Made by a program: the position numbers and the translations under genes. The notes under the pieces were generated by a model. The model was given only the letters and a program-made list of their open reading frames with translations, did no database searches and had not been told where the DNA came from. From Escherichia coli (lineage in GTDB: Bacteria; Pseudomonadota; Gammaproteobacteria; Enterobacterales; Enterobacteriaceae), in assembly GCF_016026235.1 (NCBI RefSeq), contig NZ_CP065613.1: DNA of 64,000 nucleotides; one strand, written 5' to 3'. Below, piece by piece: positions 1,680-20,844 of the stretch (the first letter of the stretch is position 1; the number at the start of each line of letters is the position of its first letter).

Positions 1680-1699
1680 GGAGTTTACTCACATCTGAC

Positions 1700-2194: not shown

Positions 2195-2240
2195 TAGAAA
2201 CTCTTCTAACGTCAGGCATAAAACGCCCATAGTTATGACG

Positions 2241-2268: not shown

Positions 2269-2273
2269 CCTTG

Positions 2274-3723: not shown

Positions 3724-4817
3724 AAGAAACGCTCCATCTTACTGCTGTCAGTTCGTTTATTACTGTATCTGCGCGGATTGCCGGGCTTCATGGGAGTGGA
3801 AAGCACCCGTGCACTTTCCTGGTCCACAGGCAGAAAATGTCCGTTATAAAAACGCCGGTAAATCGTTCCCAGAGAACCGTTACGTTGTTTCGTGATATTG
3901 ATTTCTGCGATGCCCCTGGCCTGCGTATCCGGGTTGTACACTTCATCCCTGTAAAGCATCAGAATGATGTCTGCATCCGCCTCTATTTCTCCGGAATTTT
4001 TCAGGTCTGAGTTCATGGGACGTTTATTGGGTCTGGACTCCACACCGCGGGAGAGCTGGCTCAGCGCAATCAACGGAAAACCACCGGATTTTGCCAGGCC
4101 TTTAAGCCCCTTTGAGATTTCACCCACGGCAAGGTCATGACGCCCCGTGGTTCGGGTTTTTATCAGCCCGAGATAATCAACCACCACCAGCGCCGTTTCC
4201 GGATGTTTAATCAGATGGTGTTTCGTTGTTGCGCATATCTCATCAATGGTCAGGTTCGCCTGGTCCACCATCCAGATATTGCGCCCGGTCATCCGCCCCA
4301 CCCCTTGTGAGAAACGCGCCCAGTCTTCATCTTCAAAGTGAGCCACAGATTTCAGGCGTGATACTGGCATCCCTCCAGCCGCAGACACCATACGTTCACC
4401 AATCTGGATGTTCGCCATCTCCATGGTGAACAGAAGCACACCATGCCCCTGCTCAGTCACCTTGTCGATGATGTCCAGCGCAAGTTCGGTTTTCCCCATC
4501 GAAGGACGAGCCGCAATAAATACCAGGTCGCCGGGCTCCATGCCGCCTGTTTTTGCGTCCAGTTCATCAATACCGGTCATCAACGTCCTGGATTTCTCCA
4601 GTCCCTGATTCCGGCATTCAACACGCTCAACCACCTCCGGAAGCACATCATCAATATGTACCGACTGAATAACGCCCTTTTCCGTCGACAATGAGGCCAT
4701 CATGTTCTGTGCATCCTTAAGAGCATCTTCAGCTGCTTCACAGGTATGCGCATTGAGGTAGCCTGAGTTTAACGGACACTCCTTCCTGAAATAGAATGGC
4801 ATCAGAAGGAGCTAATA

Positions 4818-5120
4818 ATGAGCAGAAAAAACCAACGTTACTCTAAAGAGTTCAAAGCCGAAGCTGTCAGAACGGTTCTTGAAAATCAACTTTCGATCAG
4901 TGAAGGCGCTTCCCGATTATCCCTTCCTGAAGGCACTTTAGGACAATGGGTTACCGCCGCCAGAAAAGGGCTCGGTACTCCTGGTTCCCGCACGGTGGCT
5001 GAACTGGAATCTGAAATTCTGCAACTGCGTAAGGCGTTAAATGAAGCTCGCCTTGAGCGAGATATATTAAAAAAAGCAACAGCGTATTTTGCACAGGAGT
5101 CGCTGAAAAATACGCGTTAA
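4818..5120 (+). CDS. IS600 OrfA (HTH transposase subunit)
   Basis: 100 aa, MSRKNQRYSKEFKAEAVR..., an IS3-family OrfA. It has Asn5 where the other two copies have Thr. Confidence 0.9.
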   Translation: MSRKNQRYSKEFKAEAVRTVLENQLSISEGASRLSLPEGTLGQWVTAARKGLGTPGSRTVAELESEILQLRKALNEARLERDILKKATAYFAQESLKNTR

Positions 5121-5155
5121 TCGAACAATGGCGACAACAATTTCCCATTGAAGCG

Positions 5156-5974
5156 ATGTGTCAGGTATTTGGTGTATCCAGGAGCGGTTATTACAACTGG
5201 GTACAGCATGAACCCTCAGACAGAAAACAAAGTGATGAGCGGCTAAAACTGGAGATTAAGGTGGCACATATCCGCACTCGCGAAACATATGGAACCCGGC
5301 GGCTCCAGACGGAGCTGGCAGAGAATGGCATCATCGTTGGTCGTGACCGACTGGCACGTCTTCGTAAGGAGCTAAGGCTACGCTGTAAGCAGAAACGCAA
5401 GTTCAGAGCGACTACGAACCCGAACCACAATCTGCCAGTTGCGCCAAATCTGCTGAACCAGACGTTCGCTCCTACAGCACCAAATCAGGTCTGGGTGGCG
5501 GACCTGACGTATGTTGCCACACAGGAGGGATGGTTGTACCTCGCTGGCATCAAAGATGTTTATACGTGCGAAATTGTCGGCTACGCCATGGGAGAGCGCA
5601 TGACAAAAGAGCTGACAGGTAAAGCCCTGTTTATGGCGCTCAGGAGCCAGCGCCCACCTGCCGGGCTAATCCACCACTCTGATCGAGGTTCACAGTACTG
5701 CGCATACGATTACCGGGTCATACAGGAGCAGTCTGGTCTGAAAACATCAATGTCGCGTAAAGGTAACTGTTACGACAACGCTCCGATGGAAAGCTTCTGG
5801 GGAACGCTGAAAAATGAGAGCCTGAGCCACTATCGTTTTAATAACCGGGATGAAGCCATCTCAGTAATACGGGAATACATTGAGATTTTCTACAATCGTC
5901 AGCGTCGTCACTCTCGTCTGGGGAATATCTCCCCGGCAGCCTTCAGGGAAAAATATCATCAGATGGCTGCTTAA
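5156..5974 (+). CDS. IS600 OrfB (DDE integrase domain; expressed as an OrfAB fusion by -1 frameshift)
   Basis: 272 aa carrying the rve-type motifs VWVADLTY, HSDRGSQY and DNAPMESFW. Confidence 0.9.
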   Translation: MCQVFGVSRSGYYNWVQHEPSDRKQSDERLKLEIKVAHIRTRETYGTRRLQTELAENGIIVGRDRLARLRKELRLRCKQKRKFRATTNPNHNLPVAPNLLNQTFAPTAPNQVWVADLTYVATQEGWLYLAGIKDVYTCEIVGYAMGERMTKELTGKALFMALRSQRPPAGLIHHSDRGSQYCAYDYRVIQEQSGLKTSMSRKGNCYDNAPMESFWGTLKNESLSHYRFNNRDEAISVIREYIEIFYNRQRRHSRLGNISPAAFREKYHQMAA

Positions 5975-6374
5975 AAAAAGAACAAATGGTAGTGTCCGCT
6001 ATTGCCAGTACACCTCACATCGCGTAATTTCTGTAATGCCTCGTTCAGTGTTTTTTCTGCATCGCGCAGTGCGGCATTGCGCCGCAACGCTGCAACATAG
6101 TGCTCCAGTGAAGACTTCACCCAGGTTTTACGCCCGGTATCAGTAATCACCGGGGCAAGTTCTGGCATCTCATTGCACAACAGCACAGGATCAATCACGC
6201 CGGACACACGGGCCTGTCTGCAGATGCCTGTGTAGATATCCCGGTACGGTCGTACAGAAAAAACGTCCGCCGGTAGTGTGGCCAGAATATCCATCACTTC
6301 AGGATCTGCTCCGCGCAGAAAGAACGCGCCGATGACAGCGCCTTCAAGGTCATCGTTACGCCATACTGGAGTTG

Positions 6375-7253
6375 TCATGCAGCCACACCTCTGATACGAG
6401 AACGGTAACTGGGCCAGTTAAACGACAACCAGTTGCGTCCCCCGTCTGTGATCCTGTCGGCAATTCGGGGACTGATGAACGCCCACAACTCTTCCGGTGA
6501 GAGGTTACTGATCAGAATGGTGGGCAAGATACTTTCGTACCTGGCGTTGATAATTTCCTGCAAAATAGCCATTTCAGCCGCGCTGCCAAACTGAACGCCA
6601 ACTTCGTCGATGATCAGCAAATCCATTGACGCATAACGCTCAATAACTTCATCCGCTGTTTTTTCGCTGTCATTCCGCCAGCAATTTTTCACAGCACGGG
6701 TAAGGCGCATCACGTCGGTGATCTCCACACTGGCCAGATAGTTACGGATGATGTGTTTTGCCATAGCCACAGCCAGATGATTTTTTCCGGTACCACAACT
6801 GCCGGTCATAACAAGACTGGTACCGTTCTCCAGCATATCTGGCCAGTTCTCCGCATAGCGGCGACAGGCCGCAAGATTTCTGGCTGCGTCAGGATTAACC
6901 TCCAGATAATTATCAAACTCGCAGTCCCGAAAACGCAGGGCAATTCCGGCGTTATCAGTCAGCTCTTCCGCCTTGATGGACGACAGCTCCATGGTCAAAT
7001 CGTTGGCCTCAGCGATTAAGCAGTCAGGGCAGCATGAAATTTTTTCTCTGTCCTCGCCATTACGATCGCTCCACACCAGTATATGCGTGTGATATTCGCC
7101 ATGTTTTTCGCAATATCCGCGACCTTCACGCATCAGGCAGGAACGATAAGGCCATGGCTTTTCGCCCTTCTGAGCAAATGCAATCTCTGCCCGTAACTCA
7201 TCCATTCGCGCCTGTAGTCTTTTTTGTTGTTCACGCAGGTTAAACGTCATCAT
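6375..7253 (-). CDS. DnaC/IstB-like AAA+ helicase loader with N-terminal Cys-rich region
   Basis: Walker A is GSCGTGKNHLA and Walker B is LLIIDEVG. GAGGTGA lies upstream of the ATG at 7253, and an alternative GTG lies at 7262. It sits between the O-like and DnaB-like genes. Confidence 0.75.
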   Translation of the reverse strand: MMTFNLREQQKRLQARMDELRAEIAFAQKGEKPWPYRSCLMREGRGYCEKHGEYHTHILVWSDRNGEDREKISCCPDCLIAEANDLTMELSSIKAEELTDNAGIALRFRDCEFDNYLEVNPDAARNLAACRRYAENWPDMLENGTSLVMTGSCGTGKNHLAVAMAKHIIRNYLASVEITDVMRLTRAVKNCWRNDSEKTADEVIERYASMDLLIIDEVGVQFGSAAEMAILQEIINARYESILPTILISNLSPEELWAFISPRIADRITDGGRNWLSFNWPSYRSRIRGVAA

Positions 7254-7263
7254 CGCTGTCACC

Positions 7264-8172
7264 TCAGAATGTCAGTTTGTCACTGGATTTACCGAATTTG
7301 TCAGACATGGCTCCCAGGCCAGCCAGGACATCGACCTGTCGCTGTCGCCCACCTCCGGGAGCGGCTGGCTGTTGCCAGAAGTCTTCGAAGTGACGATCGG
7401 GTCCAAAGAACGTCGCTGCCTGCTTCACGAACTGTGTGCCGTTATTTCCTGTGGCACGTATCCAGGCGGCATACCGCTTCACGCCATCAAGCATGGTCTC
7501 CGGTTTTATTCCCTCCCTGATACGGGCTTTCCAGGCTTTGAAGGCTGCGGATTTTGAGTTACCACCAGCACGTTTTGGATATTCCTGCCAGGCCTGTTCA
7601 AATTCCGGTGAATATTCCTGTCGGGCAGAACGCGCTGGTGCAGACGCGTCAGCGGATGCGCCAATAGTGTTTTTACTCTCTGTAGTATTCTCTGAAGTAA
7701 TCTCTGTTGTATTCTCTGTAAGATCGAAATTGGTTTTCCCTTCTCCGCGGCGAGGGGTTTCCCGTGTCCGCGGTGAAGGCTTTCCCTCCTCCGCGAAATT
7801 GGGTTTTACAGTTTCCCGAAAACGGGTTTCCCCATTTCGGGAAAACTGATTGTTTTCATTGATAATTTCATTAAGGCGCTCACAATCTATACGGTAGAAC
7901 ATTTTGTGCTCAAGACGCTTGTTGGTTTCAACCAAAATGCCTCTGGACACAAGATGCTTACGCGCTACAGCCTGTTGTTCAAATGTAAGTCCGGTTTCGT
8001 GTTGTATCTCTTCACGCGTTTTATGTACGCCTTCCGCTGCATGTGCTTTATCCTGCCAGTAAAAAATCTGACCAAAGAAAATAACAGCGTGCGGACTTCC
8101 CATGTATTTAACGAGCCCAGGGTAATAAGCAACCGGATGTCCAAAATCGAGCAGAAGATCAGACGGACGCAT
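7264..8172 (-). CDS. Phage replication initiation protein (O-like / winged-helix N-terminal domain)
   Basis: Supported by its position upstream of the loader and helicase. The N-terminal region is wHTH-like, followed by an acidic/Thr-rich linker and the C-terminal motif YPKRAGGNSKSAAFKAWKARI. GGGAGG lies 5 nt upstream of the ATG at 8172. Confidence 0.55.
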   Translation of the reverse strand: MRPSDLLLDFGHPVAYYPGLVKYMGSPHAVIFFGQIFYWQDKAHAAEGVHKTREEIQHETGLTFEQQAVARKHLVSRGILVETNKRLEHKMFYRIDCERLNEIINENNQFSRNGETRFRETVKPNFAEEGKPSPRTRETPRRGEGKTNFDLTENTTEITSENTTESKNTIGASADASAPARSARQEYSPEFEQAWQEYPKRAGGNSKSAAFKAWKARIREGIKPETMLDGVKRYAAWIRATGNNGTQFVKQAATFFGPDRHFEDFWQQPAAPGGGRQRQVDVLAGLGAMSDKFGKSSDKLTF

Positions 8173-8392
8173 AGCCACCTCCCAGGCGTTTAAACATTTT
8201 TCCGGACTGAAACGCCACCAGCGGATAACTCAGGGTATGAGTACGTCCCTGAACCTGGCAGACAACCTTCTGGCTTTCTGTATTGACCAGGCAAACCCGC
8301 AGAACGTGGCCGTTGCTGGTGGTGAACCACTGCCCCACTCGGGGGCAACGGTTGTATCGGTGATACAGGGAATTAACGATGCGGCGAATCAT
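8159..8392 (-). CDS. Small phage protein, DUF4222-like (77 aa)
   Basis: ATGA coupling to the upstream Rha gene. GQWFTTSNGHVLRVCLV... follows the same pattern as the ORFs at 9977-10153 and 17560-17802. Confidence 0.4.
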   Translation of the reverse strand: MIRRIVNSLYHRYNRCPRVGQWFTTSNGHVLRVCLVNTESQKVVCQVQGRTHTLSYPLVAFQSGKMFKRLGGGYASV

Positions 8393-8952
8393 GGACGCAC
8401 CTCCTTGTCAGAACCATTCAGCCTGGAATCAACAAGTGCAGCACCAAAAACAGCATCACCTACACGGTCGTACAGTTTGCTGGCCAGCGGAGATTCAACA
8501 GCCTTAAGCATTGGGTAAAGCTGGCTTGTCCAGATTTGATGGATTTCACGCAAATGCAGGTATACGCCTCTGGCGTTTTGTGCGACAGATGACATGTCAG
8601 CCGCACCAGCTCCTGATAAGCTCCTCTCCATCTGGTTAAAGGCATTGATGTATGCCTCTTTGAACCGGGCGGCACGTTTACCAGTGAAGCCCATAGCAAG
8701 GAAGGCGAAGCCGTCGCGGGTGATTTGGTAGCAGGGAAGTTTGCGAGTACCGCCGTTGGGCTGGCGTACCAAAATTGATGTCTCCGCAAAATTGCGGGCA
8801 CAAAACTCTGGAGAACAATCCAAAATGCGGATCTTTTTCAGAACATCGTCATGACGTTTAGAGAAGAAGTTGGCAACAGCCAGGGATGAAGTAACAGCCT
8901 GACCATCAACGATGGCAATTTCAGGTTGAGTGAGGGTTGGGATCGTAGCCAT
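8389..8952 (-). CDS. Phage regulatory protein Rha family (187 aa)
   Basis: MATIPTLTQPEIAIVDGQAVTSSLAVANFFSKRHDDVLKKIR... has the Rha N-terminal signature. AAGAGG lies upstream of the ATG at 8952. It is only the 3' third of the 620-aa track ORF. Confidence 0.75.
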   Translation of the reverse strand: MATIPTLTQPEIAIVDGQAVTSSLAVANFFSKRHDDVLKKIRILDCSPEFCARNFAETSILVRQPNGGTRKLPCYQITRDGFAFLAMGFTGKRAARFKEAYINAFNQMERSLSGAGAADMSSVAQNARGVYLHLREIHQIWTSQLYPMLKAVESPLASKLYDRVGDAVFGAALVDSRLNGSDKEVRP

Positions 8953-9306
8953 GATGGCAGCCTCTTTGGTGATTTTTAATAACTCACCACCAAAGCTTCT
9001 CACGGCAATAGGTGGTGAGACGTACAGGGGTGAGAAACCGGTCACCAAAGAACCCGGCCCAACCGAAGTTGGCCCTGCACGCCCCACCATAATTTGGGCG
9101 TAATGCTGCTCATGACACAAAAAAACCGCAAGAGCGCGGTTGTGCGCTTTGGTGAATTCCGGGTTCTCACGCCCGGCACCCGCTTTATAAGGTGCGGAGA
9201 CAGTGTAACGTCCCGAAATTGCAGAATCAATATCAAAATGTTGTAGCTGTGGACAACGCGAAGCCTTGTTGTTATTGTTTACAACAAGAACCAGAGGAAG
9301 CTTTAA

Positions 9307-9594
9307 ATGCCATCCAGACTGTATAAACAGTTCATCCGTCATCTCGGTGAATCTGAATACATACGAATCCGCATATGGGAAGTGGAGCCTGCTGTATTGG
9401 GTAGCCAGCACAACTACAAATACAGCATGGCTTATGTCGTTGATGGCATGTGTGTGATGCGTTACGACAACGAACGGGGTAAAGGCGATCACAAACACAT
9501 TGGTAGTCAGGAAGTCAGCACCAGCTTTGTCACCATTGAACAACTGCTCGCTGATTTTCTGGCTGACGTTGAATCCATCCGCAGAGGTATCTGA
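9307..9594 (+). CDS. TumE-like (DUF6516) putative toxin, 95 aa
   Basis: KYSMAYVVDGMCVMRYDNERGKGDHKHIG...FVTIEQLLADFLADVESIR matches the DUF6516/TumE pattern (YDNERGKGDH.H) as I recall it. Confidence 0.6.
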   Translation: MPSRLYKQFIRHLGESEYIRIRIWEVEPAVLGSQHNYKYSMAYVVDGMCVMRYDNERGKGDHKHIGSQEVSTSFVTIEQLLADFLADVESIRRGI

Positions 9595-9595
9595 C

Positions 9596-9955
9596 ATGAG
9601 AACCGTAACAATCCGAATCGAGTCAATGGATAATTTCACGGCTGATGTGCTGTCTGCGTTCCAGGAAGCAGCTACCGGAGCAAAAGCAACCAGAGAAAAC
9701 GTTATTTCATTTCCTGACTGGCAAATGATGCATAAGGTACTGACACCAAAACGCATGGACATTCTGATGGCAATGACTGGTGCCGGAGAAATGTCCATCC
9801 GAAAAATTGCAGCCCTGGTTGGACGTGATGTAAAAAGCGTGCATACTGACGTGACCGCACTCATCAGCAACGGTTTACTGGAAAAAAGCGAGCGCGGAAC
9901 GTCATTCCCGTATGACGACATCCACTTTGATTTTACGCTGGGCAAGGCGGCGTAA
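9596..9955 (+). CDS. HTH DNA-binding protein, TumA / COG4190-like putative antitoxin (119 aa)
   Basis: The ATG lies 1 nt after the upstream stop codon. MRTVTIRIESMD...LTPKRMDILMAMTGAGEMSIRKIAALVGRDVKSVHTDVTALISNGLLEK is a winged HTH. Confidence 0.6.
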   Translation: MRTVTIRIESMDNFTADVLSAFQEAATGAKATRENVISFPDWQMMHKVLTPKRMDILMAMTGAGEMSIRKIAALVGRDVKSVHTDVTALISNGLLEKSERGTSFPYDDIHFDFTLGKAA

Positions 9956-9976
9956 TTTTTCGTATATACCGTGCCG

Positions 9977-10153
9977 TCATTCCGGCGGCGCTTCACACTC
10001 CACAAAATCACGCCTGAACAACCACAACGGGCTGAAACATTCGTACGGATAGCCGTCACGCAGGTAAATGACTCGCTGCGTTTCAGACTCCCAGCGTATA
10101 ACGTGGACACGACGCCCCCTTCCGTCACGGAACCAGCGATTGAGGACTTGCAT
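9977..10153 (-). CDS. Small phage protein, DUF4222-like (58 aa, below the ORF-track cutoff)
   Basis: Hand translation gives MQVLNRWFRDGRGRRVHVIRWESETQRVIYLRDGYPYECFSPLWLFRRDFVECEAPPE. It lies directly downstream of the second Rha-type gene. Confidence 0.5.
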   Translation of the reverse strand: MQVLNRWFRDGRGRRVHVIRWESETQRVIYLRDGYPYECFSPLWLFRRDFVECEAPPE

Positions 10154-10172
10154 AAATTACCCGTAAACATTG

Positions 10173-10886
10173 TCACACCTTCCAGCCAGTAGCCTGAAAC
10201 AGGCCCATTCTCGGGTGATACCAGCGGGTACCACGCTGAACGGCACCACACATCATGTGATGAAACGCCTTCAGAAACGGTTCCACAGCAACAATTTCAC
10301 GACGTGCCAGTAATCCATCTGGCGTCAAAAATTCATGAGTGTCTGTCGGGATGTTGTATGCATTTACAAGCGTGCGACATTTCGCATCTGACATACCGGT
10401 TTTTGCTTTCAGCTGGCGATATCCGGCATAGCCCTCTCGAATGGTACCCTTTTTGATTTGCTCAACTGTTTCGGCTACGTGGCTGATTTTTTCTTCCACC
10501 TGAGTGATCCGTTTCTGCTGACGAACAGCCTCGAGCGCCATTGCGGCCACCATTTCGATTTCGCTCATTGGTTTGCGGATCTGTTCTTCCAGTTCGCGCC
10601 AGCGATCTACCAGGCGAGCAGTGAATTCAGGACAGAGCTGTGCGACGACAATGATGCTGTCGCGCTTACCTTGTTCTCCTTCAAACAGGTAATGCTCATA
10701 TTGAACTTTAAAACCTAAGTTATTGATTCTTTCGGAAACCTCAATTTGAGGAGACCGGACAACGCCACCTTTGGCTAATGTTTCAATAGTGCGTTTCACA
10801 TTGTCATGACGCTTACCCACCAGTTCTGCGATCTCAACGCTGGTCATGGATGCTTTGTCGTTAAAAATTGCGGTGTTCACTGCCAT
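10173..10886 (-). CDS. Rha-family regulator / antirepressor-like protein
   Basis: MTSVEIAELVGKRHDNVKRTIETLAKGGV... is a Rha-type N-terminus, followed by a coiled-coil and a KilAC-like C-terminus. The start is uncertain (ATG 10886, GTG 10880 or track start 10922), and AAGGAG lies adjacent. Confidence 0.7.
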   Translation of the reverse strand: MAVNTAIFNDKASMTSVEIAELVGKRHDNVKRTIETLAKGGVVRSPQIEVSERINNLGFKVQYEHYLFEGEQGKRDSIIVVAQLCPEFTARLVDRWRELEEQIRKPMSEIEMVAAMALEAVRQQKRITQVEEKISHVAETVEQIKKGTIREGYAGYRQLKAKTGMSDAKCRTLVNAYNIPTDTHEFLTPDGLLARREIVAVEPFLKAFHHMMCGAVQRGTRWYHPRMGLFQATGWKV

Positions 10887-10999
10887 CTCCTTACGGATAA
10901 ATTCTTTTAAGATTCCGCACATTCGTACTTGTTGGTGCCGAACCTTCCTTCAGTTATCCTTTTGATCCCTATAAACAAAAGAACCAAAGGAGGTTCGAC

Positions 11000-11293
11000 A
11001 TGAAAGTTCAGGCCGTTGGTTTATTCTGGTTTCGCGATGCGATTCAGTATCATGAGCTCAAAAATATTTTTACTGATGCTGATGTGCTCTCCGACAGTTA
11101 CACCGAGTGGAAACACGACGCTGAAAAATTGATTAAGCGTGTCGAAAGAAGCGGGCAACGAGTTATTAAAGTTGAAGCGGATACAGCCGAGTTCATCACC
11201 TGGTGTACAAGCGAAGGCATTGGACTCAATGCCGAAGGTAGAATGCAGTTCGCATCCTTTAAGGCTTACCAACAACTTCTCAGCGAACGCTAA
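11000..11293 (+). CDS. Hypothetical 97-aa protein (moron antisense to the PR operon)
   Basis: Strong RBS in AAAGGAGGTTCGACATG. The composition is protein-like. An 8-bp-stem hairpin at 11300-11324 follows the stop codon. Confidence 0.55.
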   Translation: MKVQAVGLFWFRDAIQYHELKNIFTDADVLSDSYTEWKHDAEKLIKRVERSGQRVIKVEADTAEFITWCTSEGIGLNAEGRMQFASFKAYQQLLSER

Positions 11294-11363
11294 TGTGATT
11301 GGGGCAATCGAAATTGTTGCCCCATCGTATTTAATAGTTATTTTTTCGCTCATATCACCACCA

Positions 11364-11573
11364 TCACTTCTCATCCTCTGTGTGCGCTAAGCTTGGATGT
11401 GTATATGGAATGTTCGGATCCAGATGGCAGAGAATGGCAACATCCTCCGGAACGCCCCGCGTTTTCCACTTTCCAACTCCCTGACTACCACGAGGCTTTC
11501 CTTTCTTTGGGAACCTGCGGCCAATAGCGGCATTGGTTTTAAATTGAGTTTTTAATATTTCATAAAGGGTCAT
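11364..11573 (-). CDS. Cro-like regulator (YdaS/Cro HTH family), 69 aa
   Basis: Divergent from the cI-like gene across a 110-bp operator region. First gene of the rightward (minus-strand) operon. GSQGVGKWKTRGVPEDVAILCHLD resembles the YdaS-type HTH. Confidence 0.65.
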   Translation of the reverse strand: MTLYEILKTQFKTNAAIGRRFPKKGKPRGSQGVGKWKTRGVPEDVAILCHLDPNIPYTHPSLAHTEDEK

Positions 11574-11684
11574 TCTTTAGCCTCACACCGGATACTCTGT
11601 TATCCAAGAATGTTAAACATGAGAATCCAAAGTATCAAGATATTCTGTTACTTTAGTATCAGCAGCCATGAAAGGAGAAGAAAA

Positions 11685-12341: not shown

Positions 12342-12443
12342 CCAGATACAAAATACAAAAAGAAACCTAAGTATCAAAAACACTTGCAACACCTTGATAC
12401 CTTAGTTACCATAAAACAAAGTTCGTAACTGAGGTATCATCTC

Positions 12444-12893
12444 ATGATCAATAAAGCTACAACTCTTGACTGTCTCGAAGAACTGAAAAACCTCGGCAGC
12501 CTCATTACACTAATAGCAAAAGCAACGGCAGATGCTACGCTCTCTAGCGATATAGAGTCATGCGCAGGACTGGCATGGGATATGACAAATAGCATATCCA
12601 GAAAGCTATCGTCAGCAATGCTTTTACAGAACAAAAATTCTGCAATCAACAACCGCCTTCGCACCCAACGCGAAGCCTGCGGCTTAACAACAGCCGAACT
12701 CGCCAGGCTGCTCGATCTCGATGAAGAAATTATCATCCAGTGGGAGAGCGGAGAGTATGAACCAACTATCAGTATGCTTATCCCACTGGCAAATATTCTT
12801 GGCTGCGATCCGATGTGGCTGTTAACTGGTGAGGTTACTCCTCCGGAGCAACCAAAAAGTGAGGAGCAGCAACACCATGACGCATCTCAATAA
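12444..12893 (+). CDS. Xre-family HTH protein with an 65-aa N-terminal extension
   Basis: The C-terminal half NNRLRTQREACGLTTAELARLLDLDEEIIIQWESGEYEPTISMLIPLANILGCDPMWLLTGE is a canonical HTH_3 domain. Confidence 0.6.
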   Translation: MINKATTLDCLEELKNLGSLITLIAKATADATLSSDIESCAGLAWDMTNSISRKLSSAMLLQNKNSAINNRLRTQREACGLTTAELARLLDLDEEIIIQWESGEYEPTISMLIPLANILGCDPMWLLTGEVTPPEQPKSEEQQHHDASQ

Positions 12894-13095
12894 GTTTGCC
12901 CCTTATCTCGCGAAGCTCTTCTACGGAAGAACCAATACCAATGGTGACATAATCGCCGCTTCGCCCCTCAAGGTACATGCGAACATTTTTATCAATCATT
13001 GCGGAAACAGTCTCAATATGAAAACACTTCTGAGACTCGCTATATAGCAGAACATATAAGTCAGCTGAGGAAGCCATGAAAAAGTTCGAAAACAT
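12835..13095 (-). CDS. Hypothetical 86-aa protein
   Basis: GGAGA lies 6 nt upstream of the ATG at 13095. The composition is protein-like (LYVLLYSESQKCFHIETVSAMIDKN...). It converges on and overlaps the 3' end of 12444-12893. Confidence 0.4.
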   Translation of the reverse strand: MFSNFFMASSADLYVLLYSESQKCFHIETVSAMIDKNVRMYLEGRSGDYVTIGIGSSVEELREIRGKLIEMRHGVAAPHFLVAPEE

Positions 13096-13288
13096 AACTG
13101 TTCTCCATGTTGATGACTTTGATTATACAAACCCGGAACTTCTCCCGGAGGTTGTAAAGGCAATAGATGTTGCCGATATAGTGATTAGAGGAAAGAGAAT
13201 TGTCAAAAACAGGCTCGCATGTACTTCAGGAGCAATGACAGAAACAACCTCACAGCAAGATGATTGGAGCCTGATTCATTTGCGGTAA
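13076..13288 (+). CDS. Hypothetical 70-aa protein
   Basis: GAGGAA RBS upstream of the ATG. Its 5' end overlaps the 5' end of the minus-strand ORF, so one of the two may be spurious. Confidence 0.4.
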   Translation: MKKFENITVLHVDDFDYTNPELLPEVVKAIDVADIVIRGKRIVKNRLACTSGAMTETTSQQDDWSLIHLR

Positions 13289-13503
13289 ATGTTTATCATT
13301 TATTGCATGCAACACAGGTGTTACATACGTCCAGTAATAACGAAACAAAAACACTTGGCAGTGAAATTCTGAATTTTGCATGTGAATATGCAAAAACCGC
13401 TGTTGAAAAAGAATTAGCGCAATAACAACAAATATGCCCTGAACGTTTATTGCGGTTTTATCGCCGGGGATTGTTACAACCTTAATCCACAGGAGGCTTT
13501 ATT

Positions 13504-13617
13504 ATGACTTTTATAAAGAATATGGCATCACACAAGACCGCCAGCCTTATTGCACAATACGGTGAAAATTACATGCATATTGCCTGCTTATTTCTGCGTA
13601 AAGCATACGGGAAATAA
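13504..13617 (+). CDS. Hypothetical 37-aa peptide
   Basis: Strong RBS in CACAGGAGGCTTTATTATG. It ends 3 nt before the next start codon. Hand translated as MTFIKNMASHKTASLIAQYGENYMHIACLFLRKAYGK. Confidence 0.3.
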   Translation: MTFIKNMASHKTASLIAQYGENYMHIACLFLRKAYGK

Positions 13618-13620
13618 CAA

Positions 13621-13980
13621 ATGACACATGAACCCATTAATACATATCGTCGCCGTATAGCTGTTGCGGCACTCCATCGAATAAAACGTAAAACAGGTAG
13701 TGATCTGCTTATTGTTGACCTTCTGGATGGGAACATTACGACCATAGAAATAACAGAACAGTTTATAAACCAGTTGCTGTTGCGCTTTGAAGGTATTACC
13801 CGTGGTGAATTGGGTCGAGTGGAGGGTGAAACAGAAATCCGAACTGCATACCAGAATGCTATCGGGATTAATCAACATACTGAATACCAGGCTGAAACCG
13901 GAAAGTTAATTATAGACAACCTTTTACAAGAGGTTATTGATTACGCGAAAGAAAAATATATCAGCGGAGGAATTAACTGA
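13621..13980 (+). CDS. Hypothetical early-left operon protein (119 aa)
   Basis: ORF with TGATG coupling to the next gene. Not recognised. Confidence 0.5.
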   Translation: MTHEPINTYRRRIAVAALHRIKRKTGSDLLIVDLLDGNITTIEITEQFINQLLLRFEGITRGELGRVEGETEIRTAYQNAIGINQHTEYQAETGKLIIDNLLQEVIDYAKEKYISGGIN

Positions 13981-14195
13981 TGGCTAATTTATCCCCTGTA
14001 TCTGTTGTGCACGAAAAAGTGCAGATCGTTATGACAATTGAAAATGGCCAGGTAACAGATGTCTGCAAAGTCCGCGATGGAGAGCTGATTGCCAGCATGG
14101 ATACATTCATACGGCTGGCAGAAAGAGCGGGGTATCAGATAACAGCACCTGCTCAGGAGGAAACCAGTGACATTAACAGCAACACGAATTCCTGA
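13980..14195 (+). CDS. Hypothetical protein (71 aa)
   Basis: Its start codon overlaps the upstream stop codon. Not recognised. Confidence 0.45.
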   Translation: MANLSPVSVVHEKVQIVMTIENGQVTDVCKVRDGELIASMDTFIRLAERAGYQITAPAQEETSDINSNTNS

Positions 14196-14385
14196 GTGGG
14201 TCCACCAGCAGGCGTTGCTGGTCCTGCGGCGGTACAGATGCCGACGTATATTCCCGCATCGGATACAGCGCAACGGATATCTCAGTCTGAAGGTTAACCG
14301 TCGCTGGCGGCTGTTATCGAAAGACGACGGCCGGAACTGGGAAGTAATGAGTCATGAACGTTATTCGGGGGAAATAAAGAAATGA
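14167..14385 (+). CDS. Hypothetical basic protein (72 aa)
   Basis: ORF with a GTG start that overlaps the previous gene by 29 nt. The start is uncertain. Confidence 0.4.
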   Translation: MTLTATRIPEWVHQQALLVLRRYRCRRIFPHRIQRNGYLSLKVNRRWRLLSKDDGRNWEVMSHERYSGEIKK

Positions 14386-14531
14386 TCGACAACCGCACCG
14401 CCAGCGCCATTGACCAGGCATTACAGAAACATGATACACCCGTCGGCCCGTTATTTTTTGTAACACGCCACGAAAGAACAAAAAATGCCTCACCCGAAAA
14501 ACGGCAATTCGTTACCTGGCATTCTTTATGA
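14382..14531 (+). CDS. Hypothetical 49-aa protein
   Basis: ATGA overlaps at both ends. Hand translated as MIDNRTASAIDQALQKHDTPVGPLFFVTRHERTKNASPEKRQFVTWHSL. Confidence 0.35.
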   Translation: MIDNRTASAIDQALQKHDTPVGPLFFVTRHERTKNASPEKRQFVTWHSL

Positions 14532-14773
14532 CCACCCGCGCTTTTGAACGTTCAGGATTCCGACAACGCCATCCTGACAAGCGTTTTATCTTCAACGGGA
14601 ATGAGATATGGAAACGTGGAGAATCAACCACAGAGTATACCCGCGCACACCAGCGAACAATCAGACGACTGCGCAGACTCATCGCCAGGAAACAGTATAC
14701 AGAAAAATGGTTCAGAAAATATGACACATGGAGCGCCGGATATTACGAACTGATGGCAACAAAACCATTCTGA
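14528..14773 (+). CDS. Hypothetical basic protein (81 aa)
   Basis: ATGA-coupled ORF in the same chain of small genes. Confidence 0.45.
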   Translation: MTTRAFERSGFRQRHPDKRFIFNGNEIWKRGESTTEYTRAHQRTIRRLRRLIARKQYTEKWFRKYDTWSAGYYELMATKPF

Positions 14774-14833
14774 CGTAAACGAAATTAACCATGACGCAAT
14801 TAAATAAGGCAAGCCGAATACATCAGGAGGACC

Positions 14834-15022
14834 ATGAACATTTATTTCAGAATAGTTATATCACTGGCAATTATCGCATGTATTTACGGATTAATCGTTC
14901 CGGCCCTCATATCAATGAAGGATACGGTAGCAGTGATTTCTGGCTTTGCTCTGGCGTGTCTGACCCCGCCCTGCATTTATGCCATTTATAAGGGTCTTTC
15001 TTTCCCCAGGAGGGAAAAATGA
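14834..15022 (+). CDS. Small two-TM membrane protein (62 aa), partner of the SPFH gene
   Basis: RBS in CAGGAGGACCATG. Two hydrophobic helices. ATGA overlap with the downstream SPFH gene. Confidence 0.55.
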   Translation: MNIYFRIVISLAIIACIYGLIVPALISMKDTVAVISGFALACLTPPCIYAIYKGLSFPRREK

Positions 15023-15820
15023 AAAAAACAATTGCGCTTGTTTTCGCGGTCAGTCTGGCTGTCTTCGGACTTGTAGGTTGCGATCGCGTTGAACCAGGTA
15101 ATGTGGGTATCAAAGTCAACAAACTGGGCGACGACAAAGGTGTCGGTGAAGTGGTCGGTGTTGGTCGCTACTGGACTGGCTGGAATACTGAAGTTTACAT
15201 TTTCCCGACCTTCAAGCAAATGAAGACCTACGATGAACCGTTCAGTTTCCAGATGAGTGACGGCACAACCATCGGCTATCACATCGGCGTGGCCTACAAA
15301 GTTGATCCATCCAAAGTTACCACGGTGTTTCAGACTTACCGCAAAGGCGTGGATGACATTACCAACACCGACCTGCGCCAGAAGATCGCCGACGCACTCA
15401 ATCGGCTGGCCAGCAAAATGACCACCGACAAATTTATTGACGGCGGCAAGTCTGAACTACTGGATGCCGCACTTAAAGACATTCAGGAAGAGATGACACC
15501 CATCGGCATTCAGGTAATGAGCCTCTCTTATGTAGGTAAACCGGAATACCCTCCAACCGTTATCGACAGCATTAACGCCAAAGTCACGGCAAACCAGAAA
15601 ACCCTGCAGCGCGAACAGGAAGTCAAGCAACGTGAAGCGGAGGCCAACATGCTACGTGCGGAAGCTGCCGGACAGGCTGATGCCATTCGAACAAAAGCCC
15701 AGGCAGAAGCCGATGCCATTCGTTTACGCGGCGAAGCTCTACGCCAGAACCCAGGCGTCATGGAGCTGGAAGCCATCAACAAGTGGAACGGTACACTGCC
15801 GCAATACATGACCAGTGGTG
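15019..15820 (+). pseudogene. SPFH/band-7 (prohibitin-like) lipoprotein, 3' end cut by IS600
   Basis: The lipobox is LVGC after the signal peptide. An SPFH core is followed by an Ala/Glu-rich coiled coil. IS600 begins at 15821, and the frame then reads through into unrelated sequence after the IS. Confidence 0.75.
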
Positions 15821-15884
15821 TGAGGTAGCCTGAGTTTAACGGACACTCCTTCCTGAAATAGAATGGCATCAGAAGGAGCTAATA

Positions 15885-16187
15885 ATGAGCAGAAAAACCC
15901 AACGTTACTCTAAAGAGTTCAAAGCCGAAGCTGTCAGAACGGTTCTTGAAAATCAACTTTCGATCAGTGAAGGCGCTTCCCGATTATCTCTTCCTGAAGG
16001 CACTTTAGGACAATGGGTTACCGCCGCCAGAAAAGGGCTCGGTACTCCTGGTTCCCGCACGGTGGCTGAACTGGAATCTGAAATTCTGCAACTGCGTAAG
16101 GCGTTAAATGAAGCTCGCCTTGAGCGAGATATATTAAAAAAAGCAACAGCGTATTTTGCACAGGAGTCGCTGAAAAATACGCGTTAA
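15885..16187 (+). CDS. IS600 OrfA
   Basis: Identical to copy 3 OrfA, starting MSRKTQ.... Confidence 0.9.
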   Translation: MSRKTQRYSKEFKAEAVRTVLENQLSISEGASRLSLPEGTLGQWVTAARKGLGTPGSRTVAELESEILQLRKALNEARLERDILKKATAYFAQESLKNTR

Positions 16188-16222
16188 TCGAACAATGGCG
16201 ACAACAATTTCCCATTGAAGCG

Positions 16223-17041
16223 ATGTGTCAGGTATTTGGTGTATCCAGGAGCGGTTATTACAACTGGGTACAGCATGAACCCTCAGACAGAAAACAAAGT
16301 GATGAGCGGCTAAAACTGGAGATTAAGGTGGCACATATCCGCACTCGCGAAACATATGGAACCCGGCGGCTCCAGACGGAGCTGGCAGAGAATGGCATCA
16401 TCGTTGGTCGTGACCGACTGGCACGTCTTCGTAAGGAGCTAAGGCTACGCTGTAAGCAGAAACGCAAGTTCAGAGCGACTACGAACCCGAACCACAATCT
16501 GCCAGTTGCGCCAAATCTGCTGAACCAGACGTTCGCTCCTACAGCACCAAATCAGGTCTGGGTGGCGGACCTGACGTATGTTGCCACACAGGAGGGATGG
16601 TTGTACCTCGCTGGCATCAAAGATGTTTATACGTGCGAAATTGTCGGCTACGCCATGGGAGAGCGCATGACAAAAGAGCTGACAGGTAAAGCCCTGTTTA
16701 TGGCGCTCAGGAGCCAGCGCCCACCTGCCGGGCTAATCCACCACTCTGATCGAGGTTCACAGTACTGCGCATACGATTACCGGGTCATACAGGAGCAGTC
16801 TGGTCTGAAAACATCAATGTCGCGTAAAGGTAACTGTTACGACAACGCTCCGATGGAAAGCTTCTGGGGAACGCTGAAAAATGAGAGCCTGAGCCACTAT
16901 CGTTTTAATAACCGGGATGAAGCCATCTCAGTAATACGGGAATACATTGAGATTTTCTACAATCGTCAGCGTCGTCACTCTCGTCTGGGGAATATCTCCC
17001 CGGCAGCCTTCAGGGAAAAATATCATCAGATGGCTGCTTAA
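16223..17041 (+). CDS. IS600 OrfB
   Basis: Identical to copy 1 OrfB. Confidence 0.9.
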   Translation: MCQVFGVSRSGYYNWVQHEPSDRKQSDERLKLEIKVAHIRTRETYGTRRLQTELAENGIIVGRDRLARLRKELRLRCKQKRKFRATTNPNHNLPVAPNLLNQTFAPTAPNQVWVADLTYVATQEGWLYLAGIKDVYTCEIVGYAMGERMTKELTGKALFMALRSQRPPAGLIHHSDRGSQYCAYDYRVIQEQSGLKTSMSRKGNCYDNAPMESFWGTLKNESLSHYRFNNRDEAISVIREYIEIFYNRQRRHSRLGNISPAAFREKYHQMAA

Positions 17042-17150
17042 AAAAAGAACAAATGGTAGTGTCCGCTATTGCCAGTACACCTCAGTGCCAATACACCATT
17101 TATCCAGATTAAATAACTTATATGCCCGGCAGGCCGCCGGGCTAAGGGAA

Positions 17151-17528
17151 ATGCAGATGAACACCCAGAATACTCAACCGCAAATAATGAACTATGACCC
17201 GAATCTGACGTCATGCGGACGCATGGCAAAACAAACCGTTCGATTAACTTTCGGACTATGGGAATACCGCGAAACATTCGAAGTTACTGTCGGCGGCAAT
17301 CTGACCGGACTGGATGTTATCAGTTGCGCTATTGAAAGCCTGTACGCAACGCTGCCTTATGAAGAAGTCGAGGATGAGCGAACAGGGGAAACAGATATCA
17401 TGGCCACCATTAATATTGGCGAACTGATATGTCAGGATGAAGACCTGTCCGGAGAGCTCTGGCTTGCCGGGATGCTTATCTCAGCAGAAATTATCAGTAT
17501 TGAACCCGCTACAAACATACGGCTCTGA
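17151..17528 (+). CDS. Hypothetical acidic prophage protein (about 125 aa)
   Basis: AAGGGA RBS, with ATG at 17151 or 17157. It is the 3' part of a track ORF that begins artificially inside IS600. Confidence 0.5.
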   Translation: MQMNTQNTQPQIMNYDPNLTSCGRMAKQTVRLTFGLWEYRETFEVTVGGNLTGLDVISCAIESLYATLPYEEVEDERTGETDIMATINIGELICQDEDLSGELWLAGMLISAEIISIEPATNIRL

Positions 17529-17559
17529 AGTTCTCACTATTCAGAGAGCAGGAGAAAAA

Positions 17560-17802
17560 ATGTTCGCTTTGATTAATCAGGGACAACTGTATACCGACAG
17601 TGCCGGTTACCCGGTAAAAATTATTCGCTGCATAAACAACACTGTGTTGTACAGAAGAATGGATGGGCGAACACAGTCAGTAAAAATAAACGATTTCAAT
17701 GAACTGTTTGAACGGATCGATCACCAGGAATACCGACAAATTCTGGCAGAAACAGAGCAGGAAGCTCATCTGAAAAAATTACGGGCCATGAAAAGGAAGT
17801 AA
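17560..17802 (+). CDS. Small phage protein, DUF4222-like (80 aa)
   Basis: RBS in GCAGGAGAAAAAATG. Sequence MFALINQGQLYTDSAGYPVKIIRCINNTVLYRRMDGRTQSVKINDFNELFERI. Confidence 0.5.
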   Translation: MFALINQGQLYTDSAGYPVKIIRCINNTVLYRRMDGRTQSVKINDFNELFERIDHQEYRQILAETEQEAHLKKLRAMKRK

Positions 17803-17805
17803 AGA

Positions 17806-17952
17806 ATGAATAAAGCGTTTGAGCTATGGGTACGCCAGCGTTACGGCAATCGCTATGACCTGACGCGAGATGTTGACGGTTTCTACTGTCGTGAAATTGT
17901 GAAACGAATGTTTGAAGTGTGGTGCCACTGCCGTGGGCTGAGTGTTGTGTGA
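17806..17952 (+). CDS. Hypothetical 48-aa protein
   Basis: Hand translated as MNKAFELWVRQRYGNRYDLTRDVDGFYCREIVKRMFEVWCHCRGLSVV. It fills the gap before xis. Confidence 0.3.
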   Translation: MNKAFELWVRQRYGNRYDLTRDVDGFYCREIVKRMFEVWCHCRGLSVV

Positions 17953-17960
17953 GGTAATGC

Positions 17961-18197
17961 ATGGGCAATGTGATTCAACTGGCTCCCAATGAATGGGTTT
18001 GTGAAAGCGTTCTTATCGCAATTACCGGGCTCAAACCAGGCACAATTCTCCGAGCCCGGAAAGAATGCTGGATGGTAGGAAGAGAGTATATTCACGTATC
18101 ACCAGACGGTAATCCAAAGCCATCCAGCGAATGTATGTATAACAGAAAAGCAATAGATGCCTGGGTCTCTTCAATGAAAAACAAACAACCTGGGTGA
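17961..18197 (+). CDS. xis: Excisionase (Xis-like)
   Basis: 78-aa ORF immediately upstream of int. It resembles excisionase-family wHTH proteins. Confidence 0.6.
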   Translation: MGNVIQLAPNEWVCESVLIAITGLKPGTILRARKECWMVGREYIHVSPDGNPKPSSECMYNRKAIDAWVSSMKNKQPG

Positions 18198-19476
18198 TTT
18201 AATGCCATGAAGTATGTAAGCTCGTATCGCTCTTGGGCGTCTGGAGGTATCAATGGATAAAGTCAAATATCCAACAGGCGTCGAAAACCACGGTGGCACA
18301 TTACGCATCTGGTTTAATTTTAAAGGTAAACGTGTCAGGGAAAATCTTGGTGTCCCTGACACTGCCAAGAACAGGAAGATCGCCGGAGAGCTGCGGACAT
18401 CTGTATGTTTTGCCATTCGTACAGGAAATTTTGATTATGCTGCGCAGTTCCCTGACTCTCCTAACCTCAAGGCTTTTGGGGTAAATAAAAAAGAAATTAC
18501 GGTGAAAGAACTTGAAGAAAAATGGCTGGATCTGAAACGAATGGAAATCTCTGCAAATGCATTCAATCGCTATGAATCCATTGCAAGGATGATGGTTCCG
18601 AAGATTGGTGGCAACCGACTGGTATCAGCAGTGACCAAAGAGGAATTGCTGTATATCAGGAAAGATTTGCTGACCGGATACCAAAATCCAACAAAAGGTA
18701 AAGCTCCAGTAAAAGGACGAAGCGTTGTCACAGTAAATTATTACATGACAACAATCGCTGGAATGTTTCAGTTTGCTGCAGATCACGGTTACATAGAAGC
18801 AAATCCCTTCGAGGGAATTAAGCCTCTTAAAAGAGCCAGGGCAGAACCAGATCCGCTAACTCGTGACGAATTTATTCGCCTGATAGATGCTTGCCGGCAT
18901 CAGCAGACAAAAAACCTGTGGTCATTGGCTGTGTACACAGGAATGCGTCATGGTGAACTGGTCTCCCTGGCCTGGGAAGATATCGATCTGAAAGCAGGAA
19001 CAATTACTATCAGGCGCAATTATACGAAACTCGGTGAGTTCACTCTACCTAAAACTGAAGCAAGTACAAACAGGGTTGTGCATCTTATCCAGCCCGCTAT
19101 CAGTGTCCTGAAAAATCAGGCTGAAATGACAAGACTGGGTAAGCAGCACAACATCAAGGTTCAACTACGTGAATATGGACGTTCAGTAAATCATGAATGT
19201 ACTTTCGTATTTAACCCCCAGGTGGTTAGAAAAAGCAAACAGGTAGGTTTTATCTACAAGGTAGATTCCATTGGCGACTCATGGGAAACAGCCATTAAAC
19301 GTGCAGGCATCAGGCATCGAAAGGCATACCAGTCACGACACACTTATGCGTGCTGGTCATTATCTGCCGGAGCAAATCCAAGCTTCATTGCCAGCCAGAT
19401 GGGGCATGCAAGTGAGGTAGCCTGAGTTTAACGGACACTCCTTCCTGAAATAGAATGGCATCAGAAGGAGCTAATA

Positions 19477-19779
19477 ATGAGCAGAAAAACCCAACGTTAC
19501 TCTAAAGAGTTCAAAGCCGAAGCTGTCAGAACGGTTCTTGAAAATCAACTTTCGATCAGTGAAGGCGCTTCCCGATTATCCCTTCCTGAAGGCACTTTAG
19601 GACAATGGGTTACCGCCGCCAGAAAAGGGCTCGGTACTCCTGGCTCCCGCACGGTGGCTGAACTGGAATCTGAAATTCTGCAACTGCGTAAGGCGTTAAA
19701 TGAAGCTCGCCTTGAGCGAGATATATTAAAAAAAGCAACAGCGTATTTTGCACAGGAGTCGCTGAAAAATACGCGTTAA
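19477..19779 (+). CDS. IS600 OrfA
   Basis: 100 aa, identical in protein sequence to copy 2. Confidence 0.9.
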   Translation: MSRKTQRYSKEFKAEAVRTVLENQLSISEGASRLSLPEGTLGQWVTAARKGLGTPGSRTVAELESEILQLRKALNEARLERDILKKATAYFAQESLKNTR

Positions 19780-19814
19780 TCGAACAATGGCGACAACAAT
19801 TTCCCATTGAAGCG

Positions 19815-20633
19815 ATGTGTCAGGTATTTGGTGTATCCAGGAGCGGTTATTACAACTGGGTACAGCATGAACCCTCAGACAGAAAACAAAGTGATGAGCG
19901 GCTAAAACTGGAGATTAAGGTGGCACATATCCGCACTCGCGAAACATATGGAACCCGGCGGCTCCAGACGGAGCTGGCAGAGAATGGCATCATCGTTGGT
20001 CGTGACCGACTGGCACGTCTTCGTAAGGAGCTAAGGCTACGCTGTAAGCAGAAACGCAAGTTCAGAGCGACTACGAACCCGAACCACAATCTGCCAGTTG
20101 CGCCAAATCTGCTGAACCAGACGTTCGCTCCTACAGCACCAAATCAGGTCTGGGTGGCGGACCTGACGTATGTTGCCACACAGGAGGGATGGTTGTACCT
20201 CGCTGGCATCAAAGATGTTTATACGTGCGAAATTGTCGGCTACGCCATGGGAGAGCGCATGACAAAAGAGCTGACAGGTAAAGCCCTGTTTATGGCGCTC
20301 AGGAGCCAGCGCCCACCTGCCGGGCTAATCCACCACTCTGATCGAGGTTCACAGTACTGCGCATACGATTACCGGGTCATACAGGAGCAGTTTGGTCTGA
20401 AAACATCAATGTCGCGTAAAGGTAACTGTTACGACAACGCTCCGATGGAAAGCTTCTGGGGAACGCTGAAAAATGAGAGCCTGAGCCACTATCGTTTTAA
20501 TAACCGGGATGAAGCCATCTCAGTAATACGGGAATACATTGAGATTTTCTACAATCGTCAGCGTCGTCACTCTCGTCTGGGGAATATCTCCCCGGCAGCC
20601 TTCAGGGAAAAATATCATCAGATGGCTGCTTAA
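19815..20633 (+). CDS. IS600 OrfB
   Basis: 272 aa. It has one substitution relative to copies 1 and 2 (EQFGLK versus EQSGLK). Confidence 0.9.
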   Translation: MCQVFGVSRSGYYNWVQHEPSDRKQSDERLKLEIKVAHIRTRETYGTRRLQTELAENGIIVGRDRLARLRKELRLRCKQKRKFRATTNPNHNLPVAPNLLNQTFAPTAPNQVWVADLTYVATQEGWLYLAGIKDVYTCEIVGYAMGERMTKELTGKALFMALRSQRPPAGLIHHSDRGSQYCAYDYRVIQEQFGLKTSMSRKGNCYDNAPMESFWGTLKNESLSHYRFNNRDEAISVIREYIEIFYNRQRRHSRLGNISPAAFREKYHQMAA

Positions 20634-20844
20634 AAAAAGAACAAATGGTAGTGTCCGCTATTGCCAGTACACCTCAAAGTGCCCAGATGGTGTTCAATGT
20701 ATACGGAGCATGGATGACTGACAGCAATGCAGAACAGATCGCAATGCTGAATCAGAAGCTGGCAGATTATGTCCCAATGATGTCCCATGGTCACCAAAGT
20801 GACACAAGAGGCTTATTAAAATCAGTGAGTTAGCTTTTAATACC

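Follow-up and report, generated by a model that had tools for sequence, protein, structure and literature searches.

How does one prophage come to hold three copies of the same insertion sequence (IS) within 16 kb, and what is left of the phage once they have arrived? The question is raised by a 64,000-nt stretch of Escherichia coli DNA (contig NZ_CP065613.1 of RefSeq assembly GCF_016026235.1; the whole stretch is called the window below), in which a phiP27-like lambdoid prophage integrated at yecE carries three directly oriented copies of IS600. A preliminary description of this DNA took them for primary insertions that each disable a key phage function and that have not recombined with one another since. 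We consider it very probable that they stem from three separate transpositions into one yecE prophage of an O143:H26 enteroinvasive E. coli (EIEC), copies 1 and 2 first and copy 3 later in a sub-lineage, and that the prophage is now grounded. What carries this conclusion can be read directly, namely the copies and their duplications, the empty sites in relatives, the open reading frames (ORFs) that reappear when the copies are taken out, and the order of arrival; loss of function, polarity and any selection for the insertions are inferred.

Three IS600 copies and their target sites

A repeat finder returned a single three-member direct-repeat family with starts at 4754, 15821 and 19413, and direct comparison upheld the borders given earlier to the base: each copy is 1264 bp long, all three lie on the plus strand, they are near-identical, and similarity ends at the borders listed here, together with the single-nucleotide polymorphisms (SNPs) that distinguish the copies.

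4754..6017, plus strand: IS600 copy 1 (1264 bp), in the prophage DnaB-type helicase gene and antisense to that gene; private SNP 78A
15821..17084, plus strand: IS600 copy 2 (1264 bp), in the SPFH/Band_7 lipoprotein gene, 9 codons short of its stop and in the sense orientation; private silent 169T
19413..20676, plus strand: IS600 copy 3 (1264 bp), in the integrase gene after codon 387; SNPs 232C and 980T (OrfAB S306F)
4751..4753: CAT, left duplication of copy 1 (right duplication 6018–6020); present once in the RMDEC332 prophage and phiP27
15818..15820: GTG, left duplication of copy 2 (right duplication 17085–17087); present once in the RMDEC332 prophage and phiP27
19410..19412: AAG, left duplication of copy 3 (right duplication 20677–20679); present once in the RMDEC332 prophage, phiP27 and strain ATM460

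Every copy thus has its own 3-bp duplication, CAT/CAT, GTG/GTG and AAG/AAG, as had been claimed. The comparators that settle whether these triplets are true duplications are the yecE prophage of E. coli RMDEC332 and phage phiP27, both uninterrupted at the sites in question; in each of them the triplet is single at all three sites and the sequence reads straight through, which leaves the claim standing. When the IS and one triplet were deleted in silico, intact ORFs were recovered for the helicase (463 aa), the SPFH protein (276 aa) and the integrase (437 aa). All three copies are primary insertions with true 3-bp duplications. The flanks read ...GTATGCGCAT to the left of copy 1, GTGCCAATAC... 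to the right of copy 2 and AAGTGCCCAG... to the right of copy 3.

The RMDEC332 prophage, in which helicase, SPFH and int genes are all intact, has an IS600 of its own at a fourth site, corresponding to about window position 14835 (18261–19524 of the fetched locus). It sits upstream of the SPFH gene and is flanked by a repeated CAT triplet, and from this we conclude that the yecE prophage type has collected IS600 repeatedly. No common target motif was seen on comparing the four IS600 sites in this prophage type, a small sample (n = 4). There is a loose likeness between the right flank of site 2 (GCCAATACACCA) and the right end of the IS (GCCAGTACACCTCA).

All three elements are IS600, of the IS3 family. 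They match RefSeq features annotated as 'IS3-like element IS600 family transposase' at 99.8% identity over 1264/1264 bp and the IS600 of RMDEC332 at 99.76–99.84%, and their ends are imperfect inverted repeats, TGAGGT.../...ACCTCA (5′-TG...CA-3′), the left end agreeing with the reverse complement of the right at 18 of the 30 terminal positions. Among themselves the copies differ pairwise by 2, 3 and 3 SNPs, located at element positions 78, 169, 232 and 980. The two protein differences described earlier both come from these: Thr5Asn in OrfA of copy 1 is caused by its private 78A, and the Ser-to-Phe change in copy 3 by 980T, at residue 306 of the fused OrfAB. Positions 169 (T in copy 2 only) and 232 (C in copy 3 only) leave the protein unaltered. 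In length, orfA/orfB layout, A7G site, a transposase with helix-turn-helix and rve DDE domains, and 3-bp duplications the copies equal the known IS600; they differ from it by four SNPs only, of which two change a protein (OrfA T5N and OrfAB S306F), and S306F is also found in the IS600 of another strain, RMDEC332. IS600 was first described in Shigella sonnei. Of 5426 complete E. coli genomes, 3486 have IS600 matches, 1613 of them a near-full-length copy, with up to 43 places per genome. The element belongs to a group of five IS with expansions in every Shigella species and in EIEC lineages (PMC7373316).

The coding region of the element is laid out as follows.

4818..5120, plus strand: orfA of copy 1, 100 aa, HTH_Tnp_1; equivalents at 15885–16187 and 19477–19779
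5156..5974, plus strand: orfB of copy 1, 272 aa from ATG, frame open from 5057, rve DDE core; equivalents at 16223–17041 and 19815–20633

The A7G run put forward as a frameshift site does lie at 5069–5076, and it reads A_AAA_AAA in the orfA frame. A −1 slip there would join orfA and orfB, whose frames overlap, into an OrfAB of 385 aa. This fused protein scores 413.8 bits against the NCBIfam model NF033516 (transpos_IS3; cut-off 160 bits) over profile positions 1–369 of 369, and holds the Pfam domains HTH_Tnp_1, HTH_21, rve, rve_2 and rve_3. A hairpin is predicted at about 5078–5118, directly 3′ of the slippery run (z = −2.35 against shuffled sequences), and RefSeq marks a 'programmed frameshift' on the near-identical IS600 copy of RMDEC332. 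The run together with the predicted hairpin fits the usual frameshift layout of the IS3 family.

The interrupted genes

Domain searches, the restored ORFs and the annotation of relatives agree with the earlier naming of the targets as a DnaB-type helicase, an SPFH/Band_7 lipoprotein and a tyrosine integrase. That each insertion disables a key phage function is borne out for the helicase and the integrase, but not for the SPFH protein, the product of an accessory gene in which the last 9 residues are swapped. The fragments of the three genes are these.

3720..4753, minus strand: 3′ fragment of the helicase gene with the DnaB_C domain; a hybrid ORF, 3720–4802, begins at an ATG inside the left end of the IS
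6018..6378, minus strand: 5′ fragment of the helicase gene with the DnaB N-terminal domain, about 120 native residues; the ORF runs into the right end of the IS (5971–6378, 135 aa)
15019..15820, plus strand: SPFH/Band_7 lipoprotein, native residues 1–267; the ORF now ends at 15828 with an extra Val-Arg
About 17088–17116: the displaced last 9 codons and stop of the SPFH gene
18253..19412, plus strand: integrase codons 1–387, Arm-DNA-bind_2 and Phage_integrase; the ORF now ends at 19425 with an extra Glu-Val-Ala
20680..20833, plus strand: displaced 3′ end of the integrase gene, codons 388–437 and stop, holding the presumed catalytic Tyr395

The consequence is clearest for copy 3. In the restored 437-aa integrase, Arm-DNA-bind_2 covers residues 7–70 and Phage_integrase residues 202–395 (profile 3–165 of 172), and the insertion falls after residue 387 and before Tyr395, splitting the motif ...MGHAS/AQMVFNVY395. 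Tyr395 is presumed to be the catalytic nucleophile, judging from the GH(x9)Y spacing and from its place at the end of the Pfam profile. Tyrosine recombinases that have lost their nucleophile tyrosine do not catalyze recombination. Since copy 3 removes the C-terminal 50 residues including this presumed catalytic tyrosine, the integrase of the prophage itself should no longer be able to excise it, and the element would in this way be immobilized, or grounded.

Copy 1 parts the N-terminal domain of the helicase from its DnaB_C domain after about residue 120, and the two now lie on separate fragments. The restored 463-aa protein has DnaB at residues 9–86 and DnaB_C at residues 177–422 (245 bits; Pfam), gives strong matches under the equivalog cut-offs to TIGR00665 and to phage_DnaB, and has orthologues in phiP27 and RMDEC332 that are annotated as replicative DNA helicase. 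The gene for the Q antiterminator lies farther downstream in the rightward operon to which the interrupted helicase gene belongs, and copy 1 would therefore probably both block replication and weaken the activation of the late genes. With an antisense IS placed ahead of RusA and Q, polarity on Q and the late genes is likely if the usual logic of lambdoid operons applies. We can reasonably infer from the gene content that excision and replication of the prophage through its own gene products would be lost.

For copy 2 we suggest a milder effect. The insertion lies after residue 267 of 276 and exchanges ANTPFIQIK for VR. The Band_7 domain (residues 23–209, 108 bits) is outside the insertion, and the N-terminus, MKKTIALVFAVSLAVFGLVGC, closes in a lipobox, LVGC, as read from the sequence; both are 5′ of the insertion and hence unbroken in the interrupted gene, whose counterpart in phiP27, L05, is annotated 'lipoprotein'. 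Copy 2 thus amounts to a swap of 9 C-terminal residues in an accessory gene and need not inactivate the SPFH protein; it may act mainly by polarity on the downstream xis-int genes.

Lineage, order of arrival and competing accounts

The window can be tied to named strains. Positions 1–29425 are 100% identical to UGFA01000005.1 of GCA_900449985.1, an NCTC assembly. Strain ATM460, which is O143:H26, phylogroup E and EIEC clade 1 and was assembled from PacBio and Illumina reads (PMC8354535), and the assembly GCA_031665325.1 are 99.93–99.97% identical to the window from inside copy 1 through copy 2 to site 3; in its aligned stretches ATM460 shows 99.97% identity before site 3 and 100% after it. In both, copy 1 is represented by its right end and the junction there, and copy 2 by its whole length, at the same sites. 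The junction of copy 1 is also found in GCA_900449985.1 and GCA_001907535.1, and copy 2 is found in ATM460, in strain 4608-58 (JTCO01; junction), likewise O143:H26 (PMC4319576), and in at least five other assemblies. At site 3, ATM460 and GCA_031665325.1 have no IS; AAG stands there once and the integrase is whole at 437 aa. By this near-identity the window is from, or is near-identical to, an EIEC of the O143:H26 lineage. In GTDB, Shigella and EIEC are counted with E. coli in one species cluster. As copies 1 and 2 are common to the related strains, they are the older ones, and as site 3 is empty in ATM460 and GCA_031665325.1, copy 3 is the youngest. The setting we propose is a lineage in which IS elements of the Shigella type have expanded.

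Two observations on the assemblies may be added. GCA_031665325.1 diverges from the window after position 21245 (from 14961 of its locus), where a yecE remnant is followed by an IS21 (istA/istB) and then by phage tail genes (Dit-like, tape measure), which indicates an IS21-associated rearrangement at this locus. In two assemblies of the lineage the contig with the locus is an unclosed fragment of about 0.41–0.42 Mb (UGFA01000005.1, 411,807 bp, and JAALAC010000003.1, 421,407 bp); UGFA01000005.1 breaks off within the prophage late region, less than 6 kb beyond the left edge of the window, which suggests an unresolved repeat at that point.

Several points weigh against our reading of a grounded prophage in an O143:H26 strain. 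The C-terminal helicase fragment might still be expressed through the hybrid ORF on the minus strand (3720–4802, 360 aa), which starts at an ATG in the left end of the IS and continues into the DnaB_C part. A search for an outward promoter for this ORF at the left end of the IS gave none, the only promoter-like site there, at 4769–4797, pointing inward, and hits did not exceed their number in shuffled sequence. Other prophages might provide Int and Xis in trans, and the IS-excision enhancer, discussed for Shiga toxin-producing E. coli serotypes, allows precise excision of IS3-family elements where it is present and can undo such insertions (PMC9397093). The serotype rests on near-identity to named strains and not on the window itself, and the relative order of copies 1 and 2 cannot be set.

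The best surviving competitor, which we nevertheless hold to be unlikely, is that a single founder IS600 entered the prophage and that the other two copies are its daughters, made by short-range transposition. The window has three copies in its prophage part and none in the 43 kb of chromosome that follow, and the three share one orientation and are only 2–3 SNPs apart, all of which would be expected from local hopping. The SNP at 980 speaks the other way: copies 1 and 2 have 980C, whereas copy 3 has 980T in common with the IS600 of the unrelated strain RMDEC332, which points to a different donor for copy 3 and makes it an unlikely daughter of the other two. The fourth-site IS600 in the RMDEC332 prophage is, in addition, an independent insertion into a prophage of the same type, and the tolerance of prophage DNA for insertions is enough to explain the apparent enrichment. 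A parent–daughter relation between copies 1 and 2 is compatible with the data.

Separate insertions, our preferred account, could also have been selected step by step and not be neutral decay. Copy 1, with copy 2 polar on xis-int, would then first have removed replication and late-gene activation, and copy 3 the integrase at a later time, domesticating the prophage and locking in place the 9.8-kb segment between copies 1 and 2 with its immunity and toxin–antitoxin genes. To this version we give about as small a chance as to local hopping; if it were true, the segment bracketed by IS600 might also act as a cassette that can be deleted, amplified or even transposed.

Smaller still is the chance that the IS-bearing segments arrived ready-made, with the phage or by recombination with an IS-bearing prophage, so that the duplications would have been formed in another genome. 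Lambdoid prophages recombine often, and this one is a mosaic when set against phiP27 and RMDEC332. A split helicase and a truncated integrase are, on the other hand, hardly compatible with infection and lysogeny, which argues that copies 1 and 3 post-date lysogeny, and the empty site 3 of ATM460 lies within flanks of 99.97–100% identity, which shows that copy 3 inserted in situ within the lineage. For copy 2, in an accessory gene, insertion before lysogeny would be compatible with the data.

Finally, IS copies are a classic source of mis-assembly and short-read contigs of the lineage break at every IS600, but a mis-assembled, collapsed or misplaced repeat is an explanation we practically dismiss, given the private SNPs and the matching 3-bp duplication of each copy, the same junctions in the independent assemblies GCA_900449985.1, ATM460 (PacBio and Illumina) and GCA_031665325.1, which contradict collapse or duplication in assembly, and several short-read contigs that lead from unique flanking sequence at each of the three sites into the end of the IS and stop inside it.

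The segments between the copies, precedents and neighbouring features

Between the copies lie two segments whose lengths agree with those reported before.

6018..15820: segment between copies 1 and 2, 9803 bp, with the DnaC-like loader, early genes, a CI-like repressor of the LexA family, a TumE/HVO_A0114 pair, a ParE-like ORF and Rha/Ash genes
17085..19412: segment between copies 2 and 3, 2328 bp, with DUF5406 and DUF4222 genes, the excisionase gene and the 5′ part of int

The preliminary description held that no recombination between the copies has occurred since they inserted. The intact duplications exclude a fixed deletion, but gene conversion, or an amplification that later collapsed, would be compatible with them; the private SNPs of each copy argue against recent gene conversion. 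The direct repeats had also been called ready substrates for deletion or tandem amplification. This potential is real in principle, yet three long-contig assemblies of the lineage have the undeleted, unamplified order, GCA_900449985.1 covering both segments and ATM460 and GCA_031665325.1, which are without copy 3, the 9.8-kb one. A deletion between copies 1 and 2 would take out the CI-like repressor, the toxin–antitoxin-like pair, the ParE-like ORF and Rha/Ash together, and a tandem duplication of the 9.8-kb segment would be expected to leave the junction ...CAGTGGTG-IS-CATCGCGTAA. Directly repeated IS copies were reportedly described by McDonough and Butterton in 1999 as substrates for deletion and amplification in the stx region of S. 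dysenteriae 1. Deletions in the virulence plasmids of EIEC have been attributed to pairs of IS600 (PMC7283534). The repeats are the expected place for structural variation and for breaks in short-read assemblies.

The prophage itself occupies the left part of the window.

1..20862: phiP27-like lambdoid prophage, part within the window; att site in yecE (DUF72) at about 20862; runs past the left end of the window

These 20.9 kb are its early and regulatory half, followed by yecN, cmoA, cmoB, torZ and torY; further to the left, beyond the window, the prophage continues with lysis genes and terminase. The gene order is holin, DUF1737, a small ORF, a tRNA, Q antiterminator, RusA, helicase, DnaC-like loader, early genes, CI-like repressor, SPFH lipoprotein, xis and int, and from Q to int, as well as in the flank of yecE, yecN, cmoAB and torZY, it matches phiP27 and the RMDEC332 prophage. 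With phiP27, an Stx2e phage at yecE to which 39% of the query aligns at about 93% identity, it shares the integration site, the integrase and the order from Q to int. It differs in a mosaic early region, in the three IS600 insertions and in stx, of which there is none among the ORFs of the window. Against phiP27 and RMDEC332 the mosaic consists of blocks of 83–99% identity, with some stretches unaligned.

In the place where phiP27 has stx2e and Stx phages have stx, between the tRNA (2055–2130) and the holin (372–692), there is an ORF of 111 aa (1344–1679, plus strand; G+C fraction 0.345) that carries a precomputed annotation as PF11183 (PmrD) and has no Pfam match in hmmscan at E ≤ 0.001. The tRNA, on the minus strand, is the only one in the window; ARAGORN calls it tRNA-Met (CAT), and by its position beside DNA that aligns with phiP27 it corresponds to the gene annotated tRNA-Ile (ileZ) there. 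The double label presumably has the usual explanation that the CAT anticodon is read as Ile after lysidine modification.

A close precedent is the Stx prophage of S. dysenteriae type 1, like ours a lambdoid prophage of a Shigella-like host that is defective in association with IS elements (Svab et al. 2021, PMC7819885). According to secondary sources, its stx region has insertion sequences on its flanks, an IS600 upstream of stx and the site sapC-ychK. We considered whether the window might be that locus and rejected this, as there is no stx ORF and the site is yecE and not sapC-ychK. The S. dysenteriae 1 element is a 13.5-kb remnant without most structural genes, whereas the present prophage keeps its genes otherwise intact within the window and goes on to the left with lysis genes and terminase; the site is yecE, there is no toxin cargo, and the three long-contig assemblies show neither deletion nor amplification. 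IS-related insertions and deletions occur in 12 prophages of O157:H7 strain EDL933, and decay or grounding of prophages by IS has been described for S. dysenteriae 1 and enterohaemorrhagic E. coli (PMC6379469). Prophage decay in the latter resembles the present case in that IS3-family elements accumulate, inactivate phage genes and vary between strains, and differs in the IS and in the pathotype.

Element, behaviour and consequence are thus already known, this being an ordinary route of prophage decay in Shigella-like bacteria with no new mechanism, element or gene family, and the case has little importance beyond annotation. Its small added value is the ordering of the insertions within the lineage, which makes it a clean and well-dated example of IS-driven grounding; we point out that the three insertion sites can be used as markers of the O143:H26 EIEC lineage.

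Three features of the chromosomal part of the window are mentioned for completeness. A 300-nt direct repeat with 72% identity (41234–41533 and 42935–43234; family D4) belongs to the paralogous chemoreceptor genes tap and tar and is not a mobile element. Between flhB and cheZ lies a 2.4-kb insert (35656–38099, G+C fraction 0.44) that is absent from the EIEC RMDEC332. It encodes a 502-aa dGTPase-like HD protein (35797–37305), which passes TIGR01353 with 284.7 bits and scores 183 bits against the anti-phage dGTPase model (cut-off 400), and, overlapping it, a 250-aa ORF (37274–38026) with no Pfam or NCBIfam match; the insert could be a two-gene defence module. Inside motA there is a 1292-bp element of the IS4 family (48237–49528) with an 11-bp duplication, ggaaagtcccc, and a truncated transposase ORF (255 aa, NF033591 profile 1–203 of 340), an insertion in keeping with the non-motility that is typical of EIEC and Shigella.

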